Positions 1,354-36,933 of a DNA stretch of 64,000 nt are shown piece after piece. The position numbers were made by a program, and so were the translations under genes. How positions within the stretch are numbered: the stretch's first letter is position 1; each line of letters begins with the position of its first letter. This DNA is from Escherichia phage 4E10: the sequence record OQ689735.1. One strand, 5' to 3'. Below the pieces are notes generated by a model, which made no database searches, was not told the DNA's origin, and saw nothing but the letters and a program-made list of their open reading frames with translations.

Positions 1354-1947
1354 TTATTTCAGAGAATTAATGTATTCCTGAACATCGGCAGAGGTAGTTT
1401 CAACCCCAGAAATATTACCGTTAAAGGTTTCAACTCGAGCAAGAGTATCTTCAATATCAACCTTAGTCAGTGCTGCAATTTCAACTACATCATCAGCAGT
1501 ACTAATTCCAAGGGCATTCGCGGCGCGAGTTTCACGGATATATTCCAATTTAACTGCAAGTTCTTGGCGAGCATCATCCAATTCAACTACTTTCTTAGCG
1601 ATTTCAATTCGCATTTCAGCATAACCATCAGCTTTAGTAGTCAACTGCTCAGCTGTTCGACGATATAGTAAACCGAGTTTAGCATGCATTGTTACATCTT
1701 GACCTTCGGAAAGAAGCTTGCGAATTTCACGCTCTTTTGATTCGGCCTGCTTATTCTTTTCGACAATAAGTTCACGAATACGCTTTTCTTCATTAATAGA
1801 TTTAACGGAAGCAGTTTTTAGATCTTTAATCTTATCAAGTAGTTTTGCTGCCGCAGCAGTATACTGTTCTTCGACAGATAGATTTTTAGCCATAGCAGAA
1901 CCAAGTTTAGTGCGAATAAACTCAACAATTTTCTTCAGTGTGTTCAT
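1354..1947 (-). CDS. coiled-coil protein, PspA/IM30 (phage-shock protein A / Vipp1)-like
   Basis: 197-aa ORF, ATG with AAGGAAA SD; helical Ala/Glu/Lys-rich sequence; [12 protein letters not shown] and [19 protein letters not shown] resemble conserved PspA_IM30 helices as remembered; assignment not search-verified. Confidence 0.5.
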
Positions 1948-2019: not shown

Positions 2020-2355
2020 TTATTCTTCGTCTATTTCATCGATAAAGACATCAATGGCCTCGATAACGGCATCATTGATAACCAATAAAGTAAAATCATC
2101 GTCAGTGCCTTTAGAATATTCTAAAGCATTGATATATGCTTGGTTGGCAAGTTCCCAAGCCTTTTTAAAATAAGGAGCTTCATCATCAGGGCCAACGAAA
2201 CGTACACCTTCAAAGATACGGTTAGCATAATCTAATACCCATTGTACAGGCATGTTTTGAGAACGTTCGTTAAACTCTTCAAAGTCCTTAGATTCAAAAA
2301 GTTCTTCAGGGTAATTATTTCTATTACAAAAAGCTTTACTAAAGTTACGTTTCAT
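2020..2355 (-). CDS. hypothetical acidic protein
   Basis: 111-aa ORF, ATG with GAGGAGAA SD; acidic C-terminus. Confidence 0.55.
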   Translation of the reverse strand: MKRNFSKAFCNRNNYPEELFESKDFEEFNERSQNMPVQWVLDYANRIFEGVRFVGPDDEAPYFKKAWELANQAYINALEYSKGTDDDFTLLVINDAVIEAIDVFIDEIDEE

Positions 2356-2410: not shown

Positions 2411-2674
2411 TTATTTCATATTATTGAAATATTCTTCTGCGATTTCGTCGTTATCATGGTAAACTTTAGAAGACAATTTAACATAACCTTCAGCAGTGAA
2501 CATGTTAATCACAACCTTTACAGTATACCACTGACCGTCTTCATTGCCCATTACCGCATAAGTTTCAAACATCGGATGATCAGGACCGATAACTTTAATA
2601 TCATTCACTGTACGACCGAAATCTTCTGAAACACATTTCATAAAGAAGTTGAACAGTTCGCCGTAATTATCCAT
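2411..2674 (-). CDS. hypothetical protein
   Basis: ORF 2411..2686; track start is TTG, first ATG at 2674 with GGAGA SD; first gene after early promoter at 2712-2750. Confidence 0.5.
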   Translation of the reverse strand: MDNYGELFNFFMKCVSEDFGRTVNDIKVIGPDHPMFETYAVMGNEDGQWYTVKVVINMFTAEGYVKLSSKVYHDNDEIAEEYFNNMK

Positions 2675-2711: not shown

Positions 2712-2750
2712 AGTTGTATAGTACCATGGAAGAACGGGGATGTAAACAGT
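2712..2750 (-). promoter_or_regulatory. T4 early-type sigma70 promoter
   Basis: minus strand GTTTAC (-35), 18-bp spacer, TACTAT (-10), upstream of the gene starting at 2674. Confidence 0.45.
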
Positions 2751-2876
2751 TTTGTGAAAATTTTTTTAAAAAATTTTAGGGAATTCTAGGGTCAGGAGGG
2801 GCAATTAAAAGGTAGGATAATATATTATAAAGGGTATAAACTAAATGATGCCTAGAGAGGCCCGGAAAGGCCTAGA

Positions 2877-2911
2877 TACCAAAAAGCCCCAACCTTTCGG
2901 TCGGGGCTAAG
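2877..2911 (-). terminator. rho-independent terminator downstream of the internal-protein-like gene
   Basis: minus-strand RNA GCCCCGACC-GAAA-GGUUGGGGC followed by UUUUUGG; identical copy at 3436-3470. Confidence 0.6.
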
Positions 2912-2915
2912 AATG

Positions 2916-3389
2916 TTATTTGATTTGTTTAGCAGACCAAATGCGGTCTTTAATAATTTTTTGGATGTCTTCAACATACTCAAGAGAGTGAGCATGTGGG
3001 TTATCTTTGAAACTATAAGCACGAGCTAGCTTTTGGCCTTCAGTTTTGATTACTAAAAGCTCTTTAAGGATAGCTTCATATTTGGAGATAATTCCTTTAA
3101 CAATATTTTTTTCTTGTGCAGCTTTAGGATCTGCTTTAGGAGCAGGTTTACCCGAAGCCTTTGCAAAAGCAGCGCCAGTAGCAACTAGACTTTTCCAGGC
3201 CATACTAACCGCATTTCCTGTAAATCCTTCTGCTTTCATGTCGCGAGCAAATTGGAATCGCGATTCGTCAGAAGCATCTTTATAAGAATATTTACCCGCT
3301 GCAATGGCTGCTTTTGCAACAGCTTGAATTTCGGTGCTAGATGCTTCATTTAACACCGCTTCATTTAAAAATTGAGTATATGATTTCAT
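2916..3389 (-). CDS. internal-protein-like capsid-targeted protein (CTS-bearing)
   Basis: 157-aa ORF; N-terminus MKSYTQFLNE|A matches the T4 internal-protein capsid targeting sequence with L-x-E gp21 cleavage site; own SD; bracketed by identical terminator hairpins. Confidence 0.6.
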   Translation of the reverse strand: MKSYTQFLNEAVLNEASSTEIQAVAKAAIAAGKYSYKDASDESRFQFARDMKAEGFTGNAVSMAWKSLVATGAAFAKASGKPAPKADPKAAQEKNIVKGIISKYEAILKELLVIKTEGQKLARAYSFKDNPHAHSLEYVEDIQKIIKDRIWSAKQIK

Positions 3390-3435
3390 CTTATTTCCTG
3401 TTTTAATTCGTGGATTTAATATACTACTATATTTA

Positions 3436-3470
3436 TACCAAAAAGCCCCAACCTTTCGGTCGGGGCTAAG
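3436..3470 (-). terminator. rho-independent terminator at the end of the tRNA/stable-RNA operon
   Basis: 35-bp sequence identical to 2877-2911; hairpin plus U tract on the minus strand. Confidence 0.6.
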
Positions 3471-3518
3471 CCTTGCGGCAACCTTGTCGGGGTTCCACCT
3501 GCTAAGGCAAGTGTTTGT

Positions 3519-3610
3519 ACGAAACGCCGGGATTCGAACCCGGTTATTAAGCAGTTGACGCTACTCAATATTTTTAAAAGGCCATATCTCGACCATATCC
3601 GAACGTTCCG
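3519..3610 (-). ncRNA. tRNA-like stable RNA candidate at the distal end of the tRNA operon
   Basis: perfect T-arm (CCGGG-TTCGAAT-CCCGG) at 3527-3543 and a 7-bp acceptor-like pairing between 3604-3610 and 3520-3526, but no canonical D/anticodon arms; sits between the embedded ORF and the operon terminator. Confidence 0.3.
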
Positions 3611-3776
3611 TCAAAAACGCTACTCGACTTACGGCAAAGATATTTCCTCGAATCGATAATTCGGTGCGCCGTTTCTGCTGTGATGTAAGAGGGCATCAAT
3701 AAACGCAAAGATTATTAACGCAATTCCTTACTCAGGGAACATCAGTCCGACGACTTACCGGTAGCGACCCGGTTTC

Positions 3777-4127
3777 TTAATATTCTTTTAAAGCATCAAT
3801 CTGTTTACGGCGTTCACGCCATAAATCAATTGCTTCATACGCGGATTCAGCATTTCGAATTGGACGGCATTTATATAAAGACTTGTGATTTTGATATTGC
3901 GTAGATAACGGAATTTTATCTAAAAGGTCTTTACGTTCAAAGTATTCGTAACCATCTAAGCCAAATGAACGATTTTTGAGAAATTGCCAATGACCATATT
4001 CGTTTTCGACATAAACATAATCCGCGTGTTGATAAAGCAAATTAATTACACGTTCAGAAATAATAGTGTCATTGTGATTAAAATAAAATGTTAAATCATG
4101 AACTACTAAATAAACATTACCTTTCAT
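3777..4127 (-). CDS. hypothetical protein embedded in tRNA cluster
   Basis: 116-aa ORF, ATG 16 nt downstream of tRNA-Arg 3' end with GAGGAAAA SD. Confidence 0.5.
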   Translation of the reverse strand: MKGNVYLVVHDLTFYFNHNDTIISERVINLLYQHADYVYVENEYGHWQFLKNRSFGLDGYEYFERKDLLDKIPLSTQYQNHKSLYKCRPIRNAESAYEAIDLWRERRKQIDALKEY

Positions 4128-4143: not shown

Positions 4144-4219
4144 TGGTCGAGGCAGTAGGGATCGAACCTACGACCTAGGACTTAGAAGGTCCTTGCTCTT
4201 CCTTCTGAGCTATGCCCCG
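4144..4219 (-). tRNA. tRNA-Arg (anticodon UCU)
   Basis: manual fold: 7-bp acceptor, D and T arms (GGTTCGATCC), anticodon loop CUUCUAA, CCA encoded. Confidence 0.8.
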
Positions 4220-4223
4220 TAAT

Positions 4224-4299
4224 TGGGGTGACCGATGGGAGTCGAACCCATGACTACGAGAATCACAATCTCGAGTTCTACCAACTGAACTACGGCCAC
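4224..4299 (-). tRNA. tRNA-His (anticodon GUG)
   Basis: manual fold: acceptor GUGGCCG/CGGUCAC, C73, anticodon loop UUGUGAU, T arm GGTTCGACTCC, CCA encoded; no encoded G-1. Confidence 0.7.
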
Positions 4300-4412
4300 A
4301 TTAATACCTACTCCAACAATCAAGATGTCTTCACACGAAATTAAGAGAAGAGTGATCAGTTCAACCCTATAATCGCGTCAAGTAGATATTAATGTGACAG
4401 TTGTCACAAATT

Positions 4413-4487
4413 TGGCGGACGTGATAGGATTCGAACCTATAACCAATCGCTTAACAGGCGATCGCTCTGCCATTGAGCTACACATCC
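4413..4487 (-). tRNA. tRNA-Asn (anticodon GUU)
   Basis: manual fold: anticodon stem ATCGC/GCGAT, loop CUGUUAA, T arm ATAGGTTCGAATCCTAT, CCA encoded. Confidence 0.8.
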
Positions 4488-4491
4488 AAAT

Positions 4492-4578
4492 TGGTGGGGA
4501 GTGATGGAGTCGAACCACCCGAGTCGCAATGACAATGAATTTACAGTCCACACCGCTACCTCTACGGGATAACTCCCC
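4492..4578 (-). tRNA. tRNA-Tyr (anticodon GUA), long variable arm
   Basis: manual fold: acceptor GGGGAGU/ACUCCCC, anticodon loop CUGUAAA, variable arm GUCAUUGCGAC, CCA encoded. Confidence 0.7.
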
Positions 4579-4591
4579 TTAATTCTTAATT

Positions 4592-4666
4592 TGGTGGCCC
4601 TGGGTGGAATTGAACCACCATCTGGCGATTATGAGTCGCTTGCTTGAACCTTCCAGCTACAGGGCC
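4592..4666 (-). tRNA. tRNA with CAU anticodon (Met, or lysidine-modified Ile as recalled for the T4 CAU tRNA)
   Basis: manual fold: acceptor GGCCCUG/CAGGGCC, anticodon loop CUCAUAA, T arm GGTGGTTCAATTCCACC, CCA encoded. Confidence 0.75.
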
Positions 4667-4667
4667 T

Positions 4668-4743
4668 TGGTGCTGATTGACGGAATCGAACCGCCGACCT
4701 TCTCATTACAAGTGAGTTGCTCTACCTACTGAGCTAAATCAGC
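4668..4743 (-). tRNA. tRNA-Thr (anticodon UGU)
   Basis: manual fold: acceptor GCUGAUU/AAUCAGC, anticodon loop CUUGUAA, CCA encoded. Confidence 0.8.
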
Positions 4744-4748
4744 AAAAC

Positions 4749-4838
4749 TGGCGGAGGCGATAGGATTTGAACCTATGAGTCGCCGGAGCGACTGCCGGTT
4801 TTCAAGACCGGTGCATTAAACCACTCTGCCACGCCTCC
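4749..4838 (-). tRNA. tRNA-Ser (anticodon UGA), long variable arm
   Basis: manual fold: anticodon stem CCGGU/ACCGG, loop CUUGAAA; 2 nt from tRNA-Pro, consistent with a dimeric precursor. Confidence 0.8.
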
Positions 4839-4840
4839 AG

Positions 4841-4914
4841 TCTCCATACAAGGATTTGAACCTTGGACCTCCTGATCCCAAATCAGGCGCTCTACCAAAC
4901 TGAGCTACACGGAG
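4841..4914 (-). tRNA. tRNA-Pro (anticodon UGG), CCA not encoded
   Basis: manual fold: anticodon stem CCUGA/UCAGG, loop UUUGGGA; 3' trailer is not CCA. Confidence 0.75.
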
Positions 4915-4924
4915 TAAATTAAAT

Positions 4925-4998
<74 letters not shown>

Positions 4999-5003
4999 AA
5001 ATT

Positions 5004-5090
5004 TGGTGCGAGAAGTGGGACTCGAACCCACAAGGAAATCATTCCGCAGCATTTTAAGTGCTGTGCCTTTACCAATTTGACCATTCTCGC
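5004..5090 (-). tRNA. tRNA-Leu (anticodon UAA), long variable arm
   Basis: manual fold: acceptor GCGAGAA/UUCUCGC, anticodon loop CUUAAAA, CCA encoded. Confidence 0.8.
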
Positions 5091-5091
5091 G

Positions 5092-5164
5092 CTGGGAATA
5101 AAGGACTCGAACCTTTGCATCCTGGAATCAAAATCCAGTGCCTTACCAACTTGGCTAATTCCCA
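5092..5164 (-). tRNA. tRNA-Gln (anticodon UUG), CCA not encoded
   Basis: manual fold: acceptor UGGGAAU/AUUCCCA, anticodon stem CUGGA/UCCAG, loop UUUUGAU. Confidence 0.75.
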
Positions 5165-5551: not shown

Positions 5552-5932
5552 TCAACCTTCATCAACAATAGTGTGCGTATTGGCATTTACAATTTGCCAC
5601 CAATCAAAGCGATTAGAACCATAATCTGGTTTGTTTTCATTTTCTTTGATAATGTCACGGAGTTCATCTTCGGTAGCGGCTTTCGCTATTAAATCAGCAT
5701 ATCCACCACGAGGATAATAATTATCACCTGCAAAAAGTAAAAAGTTTGGTTTAATGTTATTGAACTCTTCAAGAGTAATAACTTTTCCTGACGGTTGAAC
5801 AATCTCTACATATTTATATCCCAATTTTTGAGCAGCATCTACTGCTTCAAGCAAAGTATCATGAGCCCATCCAATTTGACAACCTGGCTTTTCAGATGGA
5901 TTAGCCTGATAATCCGCATACACTTTGTACAT
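5552..5932 (-). CDS. hypothetical protein
   Basis: ORF 5552..5971; likely start is ATG at 5932 (MYKVYADYQ...) with AAAGGTGA SD, 1 nt after the upstream stop. Confidence 0.5.
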   Translation of the reverse strand: MYKVYADYQANPSEKPGCQIGWAHDTLLEAVDAAQKLGYKYVEIVQPSGKVITLEEFNNIKPNFLLFAGDNYYPRGGYADLIAKAATEDELRDIIKENENKPDYGSNRFDWWQIVNANTHTIVDEG

Positions 5933-5933
5933 T

Positions 5934-6119
5934 CTATTCACCTTTAGAAATTTTATCCATAACGATAGCAATTAAACCAATTAAAAATGCTACTACAAGT
6001 GAAAACACATTTTCTGCTGTAGTCAATAATCCGCATATAAATCCAACAAACATTGAAAAACTAAAAGCAGAAGCAGAAATTGCAATAGCAACATTTCGAA
6101 TTAATTCACAACGTTTCAT
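5934..6119 (-). CDS. small hydrophobic membrane protein (hypothetical)
   Basis: 61-aa ORF, almost entirely hydrophobic; directly downstream of early promoter 6142-6180. Confidence 0.45.
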   Translation of the reverse strand: MKRCELIRNVAIAISASAFSFSMFVGFICGLLTTAENVFSLVVAFLIGLIAIVMDKISKGE

Positions 6120-6195: not shown

Positions 6196-6483
6196 TTACA
6201 AAAGATTTTTAGCAATAATCTTGAGATGTGCCGCAGAAATGTGTTTAGCTTTAAACAACGCAGTTTCTTCAGCAGGAGAGATAATGATTGTAGCACCATC
6301 CTTTTTAGCAGACCACCCATCACCTAGGTAAACAGTACCTTTGATTTCTTCGCCATCAACCAAGCTAATCATTGGTTTACCTTCTCGTCCTTTATTTGCT
6401 TTAATAACTTCAGAAGTAAGAGTAGCTTCAGTAATAGTAGAAACCGGGGTAGTTGTAGAAGTAAACTCTTTGAAAGTTTTCAT
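6196..6483 (-). CDS. ipI: internal protein I (capsid-packaged, injected; T4 IPI inhibits GmrSD-type restriction)
   Basis: 95-aa ORF; N-terminus MKTFKEFTSTTTPVSTITE|A gives a 19-aa propeptide and 76-aa mature product, matching T4 IPI/IPI* sizes; lies immediately upstream of 57B as in T4. Confidence 0.75.
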   Translation of the reverse strand: MKTFKEFTSTTTPVSTITEATLTSEVIKANKGREGKPMISLVDGEEIKGTVYLGDGWSAKKDGATIIISPAEETALFKAKHISAAHLKIIAKNLL

Positions 6484-6507
6484 TTTATTTTCCTAATTAA
6501 TTTTGAT

Positions 6508-6546
6508 GAGATAATAGTATCACTACCTCATCAGCATGTAAACAAC
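6508..6546 (-). promoter_or_regulatory. T4 early-type promoter for ipI
   Basis: near-duplicate of the 6142-6180 promoter (GTTTACA ... TGaTACTAT) in the 57B-ipI intergenic region. Confidence 0.5.
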
Positions 6547-6555
6547 TTTGTGAAA

Positions 6556-7240
<685 letters not shown>

Positions 7241-9477: not shown

Positions 9478-9929
9478 TATGCCCCCTTAAAGCCAAGAGC
9501 TCGTAATCCATCTTCTGTTAGAATTCTAAATTTTATTCCACGCTTTTCAGCTAAAGATTGCGCTGCTTTCCATTTGTCAGTATTAACTGAATATGTATAA
9601 ATTTCATTCATAAATCTTTTCTTCGCTGCGGTTGTTAGATGTGCTGGTTTAACTGGTGGTTGTGTTTCTTTTTTAGGTTTTATTTCAATAAAAAATTCTT
9701 GTCCAGAAGAATCTTTCATCCAAATATCCATGAAGTATCTACGTTTTTTCCCTTCTGCATTACAAAAATAAGGAATTACTGCTGTTTCACTACCCCATGC
9801 AATAATTTCTGGATTTTTATCTAACCATTCAAAAAAGAATTTTTCCCAATTTGATCTATACGTAATTTTTTTAGGGTCACCTCTATACTTTGATATATTT
9901 TTAGGAACCCATTTTCCAGAATATGCCAT
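9477..9929 (-). CDS. 4: head completion protein
   Basis: 150 aa; stop/start overlap with gene 2; size and synteny with T4 gp4. Confidence 0.8.
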
Positions 9930-9940
9930 TGGATTCTCCT

Positions 9941-9948
9941 TATAAATA
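9941..9948 (+). promoter_or_regulatory. late promoter (TATAAATA) for gene 53
   Basis: exact TATAAATA 29 bp upstream of the ATG. Confidence 0.6.
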
Positions 9949-9955
9949 GATAATA

Positions 9956-35030: not shown

Positions 35031-35455
35031 TGCTTCTGATCCCTGAAACTCATGAATTAGTTCTCGAGAATGTCGAAGCACTTATTCCTGAAGCACAGGG
35101 TCGCTTTGACGAATTGTCTTCTGCTTTAAATAAAGACGATATAAATACAATTGTCGAGAATATGCTTGATGATGAAACTGATTTAGCGGTTGCATTAGCT
35201 TCTATTAATGAAAATATGCCGCTAAATGAATTTATCGTTAAACATGTTTCCGCCCGTGGTGAAATTACACGTACTAAAGACCGCAAGACGCGTGAACGTA
35301 ATGCATTTCAAACCACCGGGCTGTCTAAAGCAAAACGTAGACAAATTGCTCGTAAAGCTACCAAAACGAAGATTGCCAATCCAGCAGGTCAATCTCGTGC
35401 TCAGCGTAAGCGTAAAAAAGCTCTTAAACGCCGTAAAGCATTAGGATTAAGCTAA
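35030..35455 (+). CDS. 68: prohead core protein
   Basis: 141 aa; synteny. Confidence 0.85.
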
Positions 35456-36093
35456 TGAATGAACCCCAATTACTAATTGAAACTTGGGGTCAACCTGGCG
35501 AAATTATTGATGGCGTACCAATGCTTGAATCTCATGATGGAAAAGACCTCGGTTTAAAACCTGGTTTATACATCGAAGGAATATTCATGCAAGCGGAAGT
35601 CGTCAATAGAAATAAACGTCTTTATCCAAAACGCATATTAGAAAAAGCGGTAAAAGACTATATCAATGAGCAAGTTTTAACAAAACAAGCTCTCGGAGAA
35701 TTAAATCATCCTCCACGCGCTAATGTTGACCCGATGCAAGCCGCTATCATTATAGAAGATATGTGGTGGAAAGGAAATGACGTATACGGACGAGCTCGTG
35801 TTATTGAAGGTGACCATGGTCCTGGAGATAAATTAGCAGCTAATATTCGTGCCGGATGGATTCCAGGAGTTTCTTCTCGTGGATTAGGTTCATTGACTGA
35901 CACAAATAAAGGTTATCGTATCGTAAACGAAGGATTCAAATTAACTGTAGGTGTTGATGCAGTATGGGGTCCAAGTGCTCCAGATGCATGGGTAACTCCT
36001 AAGGAAATTACCGAATCACAGACGGCGGAAGCCGATACAAGTGCCGATGACGCCTATATGGCTCTCGCAGAGGCCATGAAAAAAGCGTTATAA
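35455..36093 (+). CDS. 21: prohead core scaffold protein and protease
   Basis: 212 aa; synteny. Confidence 0.9.
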   Translation: MNEPQLLIETWGQPGEIIDGVPMLESHDGKDLGLKPGLYIEGIFMQAEVVNRNKRLYPKRILEKAVKDYINEQVLTKQALGELNHPPRANVDPMQAAIIIEDMWWKGNDVYGRARVIEGDHGPGDKLAANIRAGWIPGVSSRGLGSLTDTNKGYRIVNEGFKLTVGVDAVWGPSAPDAWVTPKEITESQTAEADTSADDAYMALAEAMKKAL

Positions 36094-36096
36094 ATA
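36089..36096 (+). promoter_or_regulatory. late promoter for gene 22
   Basis: TATAAATA overlapping the gene 21 stop, 28 bp upstream of the ATG. Confidence 0.6.
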
Positions 36097-36123
36097 TTAT
36101 TATCTAAACAACAGGACTACAAA

Positions 36124-36933
36124 ATGCTTAAAGAACAACTGATTGCTGAAGCGCAAAAAATTGATGCTTCCGTTGCTCTTGATAGTATTTTCGAATCAGT
36201 TAATATTTCTCCGGAAGCAAAAGAAACTTTCGGCACTGTATTCGAAGCTACCGTCAAGCAGCACGCCGTTAAATTAGCTGAATCTCATATCGCTAAAATT
36301 GCTGAAAAAGCAGAAGAAGAAGTAGAAAAAAATAAAGAAGAAGCCGAAGAAAAAGCTGAGAAGAAAATCGCTGAGCAAGCTTCTAAATTCATCGACCATC
36401 TTGCGAAAGAATGGCTCGCTGAAAATAAATTAGCAGTTGATAAAGGCATCAAAGCCGAACTGTTTGAATCCATGCTTGGTGGATTAAAAGAGCTCTTTGT
36501 TGAACACAACGTCGTTGTTCCAGAAGAATCAGTTGATGTTGTAGCTGAAATGGAAGAAGAGCTGCAAGAACATAAAGAAGAATCAGCTCGTCTGTTCGAA
36601 GAACTCAATATGCGCGACGCATATATCAATTATGTGCAGCGTGAAGTGGCATTGAGCGAAAGTACTAAAGATCTGACTGAGTCTCAAAAAGAAAAAGTCT
36701 CTGCTCTGGTCGAAGGTATGGATTATTCAGATGCATTCTCAAGTAAATTGAGTGCCATCGTAGAAATGGTGAAGAAGTCTAATAAAGATGAAAGCACTAT
36801 TACTGAGGGTATAAATACTCCTGATACTGAAGCAGCCGGACTGAATTTCGTCACTGAAGCTGTAGAAGATAAAGCTGCACCTGGTGCAGAAGATATTGTA
36901 AGTGTATATGCGAAAGTCGCATCTCGTTTCTAA
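36124..36933 (+). CDS. 22: prohead core scaffold protein
   Basis: 269 aa, acidic helical; TATAAATA at 36089. Confidence 0.9.
   Translation: MLKEQLIAEAQKIDASVALDSIFESVNISPEAKETFGTVFEATVKQHAVKLAESHIAKIAEKAEEEVEKNKEEAEEKAEKKIAEQASKFIDHLAKEWLAENKLAVDKGIKAELFESMLGGLKELFVEHNVVVPEESVDVVAEMEEELQEHKEESARLFEELNMRDAYINYVQREVALSESTKDLTESQKEKVSALVEGMDYSDAFSSKLSAIVEMVKKSNKDESTITEGINTPDTEAAGLNFVTEAVEDKAAPGAEDIVSVYAKVASRF

Follow-up and report, generated by a model that had tools for sequence, protein, structure and literature searches.

A likely internal head protein gene in a terminator-bracketed cassette beside the tRNA block of Escherichia phage 4E10

A stretch of 64,000 nucleotides of Escherichia phage 4E10 (sequence record OQ689735.1), hereafter the window, is a Tequatrovirus (T4-like) segment that runs from e.4 to beyond genes 21-24. 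Between the homologues of e.8 and of the stable RNA gene rnaC it carries a gene for a protein of 157 amino acids (157-aa protein), which is preceded by its own late promoter motif and bracketed by two copies of a hairpin-forming direct repeat (Table 1). The 901 bases around this cassette match hundreds of Tequatrovirus genomes (Escherichia, Shigella, and Yersinia phages) at 97-100% identity. An earlier reading made without database searches, here called the sequence-only reading, had described an open reading frame (ORF) starting with MKSYTQFLNE and lying on the opposite side of the tRNA cluster from ipI, the canonical internal protein gene, and both statements were confirmed. We consider it quite likely that the gene encodes a previously unannotated internal head protein, carried in an insertable cassette and with a proposed role against host defences.

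Table 1 Features of the e.8-rnaC region and related genes in the window
Feature	Position	Strand	Remarks
e.8 homologue	2411-2674	(-)	First gene downstream of the cassette
T4-early-type promoter-like sequence, GTTTACA...TACTAT	2718-2746		Intergenic, near e.8
Downstream repeat copy	2876-2911	(-)	Terminates the 157-aa gene (intrinsic terminator); stem-loop at 2885-2908 with UUUUU after it
Candidate internal head protein, coding sequence	2916-3389	(-)	157 aa; stop codon 2916-2918
15-nt tandem duplication, TTAAATGAAGCGGTG / TTAAATGAAGCATCT	3339-3368	(-)	Yields two LNE|A sites
Capsid-targeting-like leader MKSYTQFLNE	3360-3389	(-)	Codons 1-10; Y4, F7, L8, E10
Shine-Dalgarno-like AGGAAA	3394-3399	(-)	Ends 4 nt before the ATG; AGGA core 3396-3399, 6 nt upstream
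T4 late-promoter consensus, perfect, TATAAATA	3430-3437	(-)	40 nt upstream of the ATG
Upstream repeat copy	3435-3470	(-)	Stem-loop 3444-3467; counterpart of the single T4 hairpin after rnaC
rnaC homologue	3518-3656	(-)	T4 stable RNA, directly upstream of the cassette
rnaD homologue	3663-3777	(-)	T4 stable RNA, directly upstream of the cassette
tRNA cluster	4144-5164		11 genes, between the 157-aa gene and ipI
ipI (Pfam IPI_T4)	6196-6483	(-)	Canonical internal protein at the classical locus; leader MKTFKEFTSTTTPVSTITE|A
gp21 prohead protease	35455-36093	(+)	Peptidase_S77, E 1.5e-111
gp22 scaffold	36124-36933	(+)	T4_CASP

The two repeat copies (ATACCAAAAAGCCCCAACCTTTCGGTCGGGGCTAAG) are 100% identical. 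The sequence-only reading had correctly seen them as identical, terminator-like, and bracketing the gene, and only its length of 35 nt has to be changed to 36 nt. Read on the coding strand, both copies form a stem of 10 bp, 7 of them G-C, closed by a GAAA loop and followed by UUUUU, with a free energy (dG) of -22.5 kcal/mol and a z of -3.55 (0/200 shuffled sequences were as stable). A terminator scan detected both copies, which have the characteristics of G+C-rich intrinsic (rho-independent) terminators. No third copy was found in the window even when 3 mismatches were allowed (0 expected by chance), and the hairpin is also absent from the classical internal-protein loci, which were checked as a possible ectopic recombination partner. 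The last three bases of the upstream copy are the first three of the late promoter, and no sigma-70-type site showed up in a promoter scan of the region upstream of the gene. Based on the TATAAATA motif, expression is predicted to be late, when proheads assemble, and the transcript would end at the gene's own hairpin. Across the window TATAAATA occurs 24 times (9.0 ± 2.8 expected), which fits a region rich in late genes.

Among close relatives, the interval between e.8 and rnaC occurs in four states. In T4, T2, T6, and PST the site is empty and reads, on the coding strand, rnaC, one hairpin, GGTAT|CTAGGCC (the bar marks the junction), and e.8. In the window, NBG2, JK1, and fD1 it reads hairpin, TATAAATA, 157-aa gene, hairpin, GGTAT|CTAGGCC, so that the downstream copy runs into the same GGTAT|CTAGG junction as at the T4 empty site. 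RB14 has a hairpin, an unrelated gene for a protein of 187 amino acids (187-aa protein), a second hairpin that has only its GGGCTTTTTGGTAT end in common with the first, and CTAGGCC, while ECML-134 carries both units in tandem. Over 33 aligned nt, the hairpin core has 100% identity with the one hairpin that T4 has downstream of rnaC, and the right junction of the 187-aa cassette lies inside the T-run that the hairpins share. A spread sample drawn from the 768 phage records matching the T4 empty-site query contained 39 Tequatrovirus rows, of which ~6 were empty, 21 had the 157-aa gene only, 3 the 187-aa gene only, and 9 a split match with the pattern expected for both units. All four combinations therefore occur among closely related genomes, with the junctions at the hairpins, which bears out the earlier suggestion of a cassette with different genes between the same hairpins. 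The homologue takes the same position in Mosigvirus OLB35 and in the Klebsiella Jiaodavirus KpV477, downstream of tRNA/rnaC and upstream of e.8/e.6-like genes, and since it is syntenic in Tequatrovirus, Mosigvirus, and Jiaodavirus the locus must be old.

We propose that the gene, together with its late promoter and terminator, was inserted as an independent unit at the hairpin closing the tRNA/rnaC block, and that the duplicated 36-nt hairpin may permit homologous recombination to delete, insert, or stack such units. The hairpins could instead be terminators and nothing else, the present distribution stemming from one old insertion, vertical descent, and occasional deletion. The structure is indeed that of a textbook terminator, its variants (GACC to AGCC; G-A to A-G) keep the base pairing, consistent with selection for structure alone, and the age of the locus fits as well. 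We nevertheless regard this explanation as rather unlikely: the empty sites keep exactly one hairpin with both flanks intact, the cassettes occur in all four combinations, one junction falls within the shared T-run, and T4 recombination needs <50 bp of homology (PMC2839356). One possible product of deletion was seen on a 2.9-kb metagenomic contig (P0013), where a chimeric ORF of 94 aa has an N-terminal part resembling trna.3 and ends with the final 27 residues of the 157-aa protein (for comparison, window 5552-5971 and 2916-3000); a natural deletion appears to have taken out the entire tRNA cluster along with most of the cassette.

Several known systems resemble this arrangement in part. Variants of the internal proteins sit in two hyperplastic loci with PeSL-like flanks made of T4 early promoters and AT-rich stem-loops (PMC2839356). 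As with PeSL (promoter-early stem-loop) elements, the mobile regulatory cassettes of T4-type phages (Arbiol et al. 2010; Comeau et al. 2014), a repeated composite of stem-loop and promoter flanks an orphan gene in a hyperplastic region, a single element stands at the empty site of relatives, and the unit brings its own promoter and terminator. The cassette promoter is a late one, however, and not sigma-70-like or early, and the cassette repeat is a single locus-specific terminator as opposed to a genome-wide family. The hairpin corresponds to the one after T4 rnaC (species 1 RNA) that closes the tRNA block, except that it is duplicated here and the second copy terminates the inserted gene. An autonomous promoter-gene-terminator unit between two transcription units also recalls the morons of lambdoid phages, but these are typically expressed from the prophage and are not thought to move via flanking regulatory repeats, whereas the cassette is late-lytic and bounded by direct repeats.

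The N-terminus of the 157-aa protein (MKSYTQFLNEAVLNEASS) reads MKSYTQFLNE|AVLNE|A, where bars mark predicted cuts. Suppressor analysis of the IPIII leader has assigned targeting mainly to residues 4 and 7 and processing to residues 8 and 10, and the prohead protease gp21 cleaves after L/I-x-E (PMC9026906). All four of these experimentally defined positions have suitable residues in the 157-aa protein (targeting: Y4, F7; processing: L8, E10), so that the leader fits the capsid targeting sequence with which the sequence-only reading had compared it. The predicted cut itself needs to be widened. A gp21-type site is present after E10, as had been stated, but the 15-nt tandem duplication gives rise to two candidate motifs, L8-N9-E10|A11 and L13-N14-E15|A16, and the cut should read E10 and/or E15. 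The same phage encodes both the cognate protease and the scaffold for such a leader (35455-36933).

Among the 494 Met-starts with at least 50 codons in the window, the pattern MK[ST][YF]x[EQ]F is matched only by ipI and the 157-aa ORF. The leaders of T4 IPII and IPIII read MKTYQEFIAE|A, those of PST IpIV and IpVI read MKTYQEFITE|A and MKTFKEFIAE|S, and that of JK1 Ip6 reads MKTYQEFIAE|T; the 157-aa protein shares with T4 IPI-III and with Ip4-Ip10+ of T-even phages (Repoila et al. 1994; Mullaney & Black 1996; Silas et al. 2025) the ten-residue form M-K-[ST]-[YF]-x-[EQ]-F-[IL]-x-E with a gp21 site after it. When the protein was aligned to the known internal proteins, a check that had been suggested earlier, the similarity to IPII, IPIII, IpIV, and IpVI was confined to the leader. 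Unrelated mature proteins behind a common leader are a hallmark of the T-even internal proteins (PMC12373910). The leader-coding DNA of the gene is not copied from ipIII, as judged by sequence comparison. Identity with PST IpIV, which is also exactly 157 aa long, was considered and rejected, the two being not homologous (BLASTP E 3.6). A T2 gene for a protein of this length, labelled 'valyl tRNA synthetase modifier' (L010 4430-4903), gives the same tblastn leader hit as PST ipIV and adjoins the lysozyme gene, a position corresponding to that of PST ipIV; it looks like a misannotated internal protein.

The 187-aa protein of the alternative cassette begins with MKTYAEFLTE|A and is otherwise unrelated to the 157-aa protein. 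Paralogy of the two, suggested by their joint assignment to PHROG 2280, was rejected, as BLASTP and hhalign align the ten-residue leader alone.

The precursor of the 157-aa protein has a mass of 17.2 kDa, and its predicted mature product would comprise 147 aa if it starts at A11 or 142 aa if it starts at A16. The mature part has a computed mass of 15.5-16 kDa and an isoelectric point (pI) of 9.5-9.6, with 20 Lys among 147 residues, comparable to processed IPI, IPII, and IPIII (pI 9.0-9.65). It is thus small, basic, and lysine-rich like the mature parts of the T-even internal proteins, which are likewise unrelated between members. The three possible N-termini correspond to different tryptic peptides, namely SYTQFLNEAVLNEASSTEIQAVAK for the unprocessed protein, AVLNEASSTEIQAVAK for a start at A11, and ASSTEIQAVAK for a start at A16. 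The tandem sites set the protein apart from the named internal proteins, as does a mature part with no sequence similarity to theirs.

The 157-aa protein has a very small family. When 1.84 billion representative proteins were searched exhaustively with a profile, 13 clusters emerged, apparently all of phage type and without any cellular homologue, and a word-indexed search of 5.8 billion proteins returned 13 members. By tblastn, the family is present in 511 phage records and the 187-aa protein in 165. The members range from 97% down to 26% identity, and those at 26-40% belong to Mosigvirus, Klebsiella, Yersinia, and metagenomic phages. Their leaders have diverged but keep the same form, with MKSYAEFLTE|Q in Mosigvirus, MKFKEFLAE|A in Klebsiella phages, MLEYSEFLKE|L in Yersinia phage fHe-Yen9-01, and MLKFNEFLAE|G, MINFSDFLNE|G, MKSFSSFLNE|G, and MISFNEFVDGNLITE|S in uncultured relatives. 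In an alignment of ten sequences, F7 is among just eight invariant columns, position 4 is Y or F throughout, and a hydrophobic-x-E site (L/V-x-E or I-x-E) follows in all ten. Judged from this alignment, selection on the leader is as strong as on the core AWKS motif, and the retention of the critical positions at 26-40% identity speaks against a 5' end that arose by chance or was copied recently. In homologues with a short leader, the single site aligns with E15|A16 of the 157-aa protein, and for this reason A16 is probably the conserved mature N-terminus, the extra AVLNE probably being the duplicated site. The N-domain is conserved across the family with the motif AGKYSYKD...AWKS, and two different C-domains were found. 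Existing annotation assigns the protein only to phrog_2280 ('unknown function'), not to the PHROG category 'internal virion protein', and the source names are hypothetical or uncharacterised (~55 read of ~410 members in three clusters), with the single exception of an evidently spurious 'dioxygenase' label in the 187-aa cluster.

Published virion proteomics includes a near-identical protein. Gp140 of Yersinia phage fD1 (phiD1, HE956711), identical to the 157-aa protein at 156/157 positions, carries the flag 'PPAP', for proteins associated with the phage particle, from liquid chromatography coupled to tandem mass spectrometry (LC-MS/MS) of particles purified by ultracentrifugation (PMC8309999 Table S3), and the fD1 virion dataset is public as PXD026812. 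We take this virion association as supportive but weak. The fD1 table also flags the homologues of e.5 and e.6 (g136, g137; window counterparts 704-1312 and 1354-1947 (-)), which have no leader of the capsid-targeting type, and there the flag may reflect a permissive dataset. The paper on phages fPS-2 and fPS-65 as well as fPS-90 was checked for a second proteomic dataset and contains none.

The AlphaFold2 model of the 157-aa protein (pLDDT 76.8) predicts an N-terminal bundle of three helices (18-71), a Lys/Pro/Ala linker (76-87), and a helical hairpin at the C-terminus (88-154), and structural searches with it returned generic helical matches only, with no informative fold. An additional L-K-E|L motif at residues 108-111 raises the question of whether the protein could be an accessory of the prohead core or scaffold that gp21 fragments like gp67 and gp68 and that is neither retained nor injected, given that core proteins are cut at several sites (PMC9026906). 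This motif falls halfway along a long helix predicted with confidence, however, the near-identical protein was flagged in mature fD1 particles, and the gene is dispensable and polymorphic, unlike core assembly factors, all of which makes such a role highly improbable. We instead propose that the ten-residue leader steers the 157-aa protein into the gp22 scaffolding core of the prohead, that gp21 removes the leader after E10 and/or E15, and that the basic, lysine-rich mature protein would stay inside the head alongside the DNA, to be ejected into the next host.

What the protein would do there can be approached through its characterised counterparts. Work from 2025 identified the three T4 internal proteins as injected inhibitors, each specific for a different GmrSD-type enzyme: Ip1, Ip2, and Ip3 block one distinct restriction enzyme each, without cross-protection, and five further GmrSD variants active on T-even phages had no inhibitor among Ip1-10 (PMC12373910). 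The mature part of the 157-aa protein has no homology to Ip1, Ip2, or Ip3, which does not bear on its function because these three are themselves mutually unrelated. By analogy with them, the 157-aa protein is most likely a specific injected anti-defence protein, for example a GmrSD-type inhibitor; it would most probably neutralise an early-acting defence, with a GmrSD-type (type IV) enzyme as the leading candidate. The sequence-only reading, too, had put forward an injected anti-defence protein as a possibility. It could also be packaged and processed as a generic basic, DNA-associated head protein that serves charge neutralisation or DNA condensation and ejection, with no specific host target. 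Its pI of 9.5 and its lysine content would suit such a role, as would its generic helical fold, and internal-protein lysines are known to contact DNA phosphates in T4 heads (PMC3012670). We think this unlikely, since T2, T4, T6, and PST manage without the gene, all three characterised T4 internal proteins have specific targets, and the strong conservation of the N-domain motif beside swapped C-domains looks like a specific interaction surface.

A number of observations weigh against the reading of the 157-aa protein as an injected anti-defence protein. Its cleavage and injection are predicted, and the anti-defence role is proposed by analogy. The whole protein and each of its domains had no Pfam match above threshold, no NCBIfam match, and no PDB profile match above noise, and the uninformative structural searches point the same way. 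The fD1 list is permissive, with 113-137 of 277 gene products called particle-associated and the same flag on DenV, lysozyme, and NudE (PMC8309999). The gene also stands between e.8 and rnaC, outside the two loci (denV-e and 57B-trna.4) to which internal-protein genes have been described as confined (PMC2839356); the two-locus placement is a descriptive feature of the known members and not a mechanistic one. Its late promoter and G+C-rich terminator are unlike the flanks of the named genes, as a GTTTAC early promoter stands before each of T4 ipI, ipII, and ipIII, none of them has its own TATAAATA, and the interval from -35 to -10 of the early promoter forms an AT-rich stem-loop at the canonical ip genes (compared for T4 L003 1357-2503 (ipII/ipIII) and 9516-9952 (ipI), and for window 6484-6558). 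Finally, truncated or frameshifted copies of both leader-bearing genes are common (seen in KpV477, L008 3341-3731, in RB69 ORF148c/149c, and in P0006, P0017, and P0059), so that the genes are often dispensable. These damaged copies are consistent with dispensable accessory genes under fluctuating selection, and the T-even internal proteins are likewise dispensable, variable among close phages, and flanked by repeated regulatory stem-loops.

Three of these points, namely the predicted status of processing and injection, the place outside the classical loci, and the permissive source of the proteomic flag, would equally suit a late cytoplasmic protein that is never packaged, its leader having arisen incidentally when recombination copied an ip gene's 5' end together with the translation-initiation region. 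The conservation of the critical leader positions among remote homologues argues for selection and not for a recent copy, the leader-coding DNA does not derive from ipIII, and two unrelated proteins at the same site both carry the leader, which together make this explanation very unlikely. We therefore retain the reading of the 157-aa protein as an internal head protein. In kind it is an ordinary member of a known group of injected proteins, and its placement and regulation are unusual.

On this reading, the e.8-rnaC interval is a third internal-protein locus, in comparison with two in the literature. Tentatively, and with clearly less confidence, it may be a third locus of the Tevenvirinae as a whole, made of late-promoter/terminator cassettes, where both leader proteins inhibit defences that lack a known phage counter-measure. 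Since T2, T4, and T6 lack them, the 157-aa and 187-aa proteins would never have been studied, and their targets could be, for example, the GmrSD variants that restrict T-even phages and are not blocked by Ip1-10. Both are widespread, have the same type of head-targeting leader, and are candidates for the missing GmrSD inhibitors; they were apparently missed due to their absence at e.8-rnaC in T2, T4, and T6, their position outside the loci that were sought, and the lack of a functional annotation. Repoila et al. 1994 and Comeau et al. 2007 are reportedly the sources for 10 to >30 internal-protein variants. A literature search by locus tag returned nothing relevant, though these two papers could still mention the 157-aa or 187-aa proteins. 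The leader strings MKSY and MKTYAEFL are absent from the supplementary text of the study of ip4-10 (Silas et al. 2025, PMC12373910). For future work, T2, T4, and T6 provide natural 'empty' backgrounds at e.8-rnaC, and the four states of the locus cleanly illustrate how cassettes come and go at a terminator hairpin, which could be useful for understanding and engineering accessory-gene exchange in therapeutic T4-like phages.

The surroundings of the cassette are polymorphic as well. Between rnaD and tRNA-Arg, the window has an ORF of 116 aa that starts with MKGNVYLVVHDLTFYF (3777-4127 (-)) and behaves as a presence/absence gene, being found in T2 (L010 9003-9353) and Mosigvirus OLB35 (L005 3277-3621), while rnaD abuts tRNA-Arg in T4, T6, and PST with no such ORF between them. 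The eleven tRNAs of the window include those for His, Asn, Tyr, and Met and are not accompanied by a segB homing-endonuclease gene, and T4 has eight tRNAs with segB between tRNA-Arg and tRNA-Ile. On the other side of the cassette, the slot beside e.8 is filled by the 336-bp e.7 in the window (2020-2355 (-)), T4, and T6, and by an unrelated ORF of 177 bp in NBG2, PST, RB14, and T2 (L001 3467-3643, L004 6570-6746, L007 56-232).

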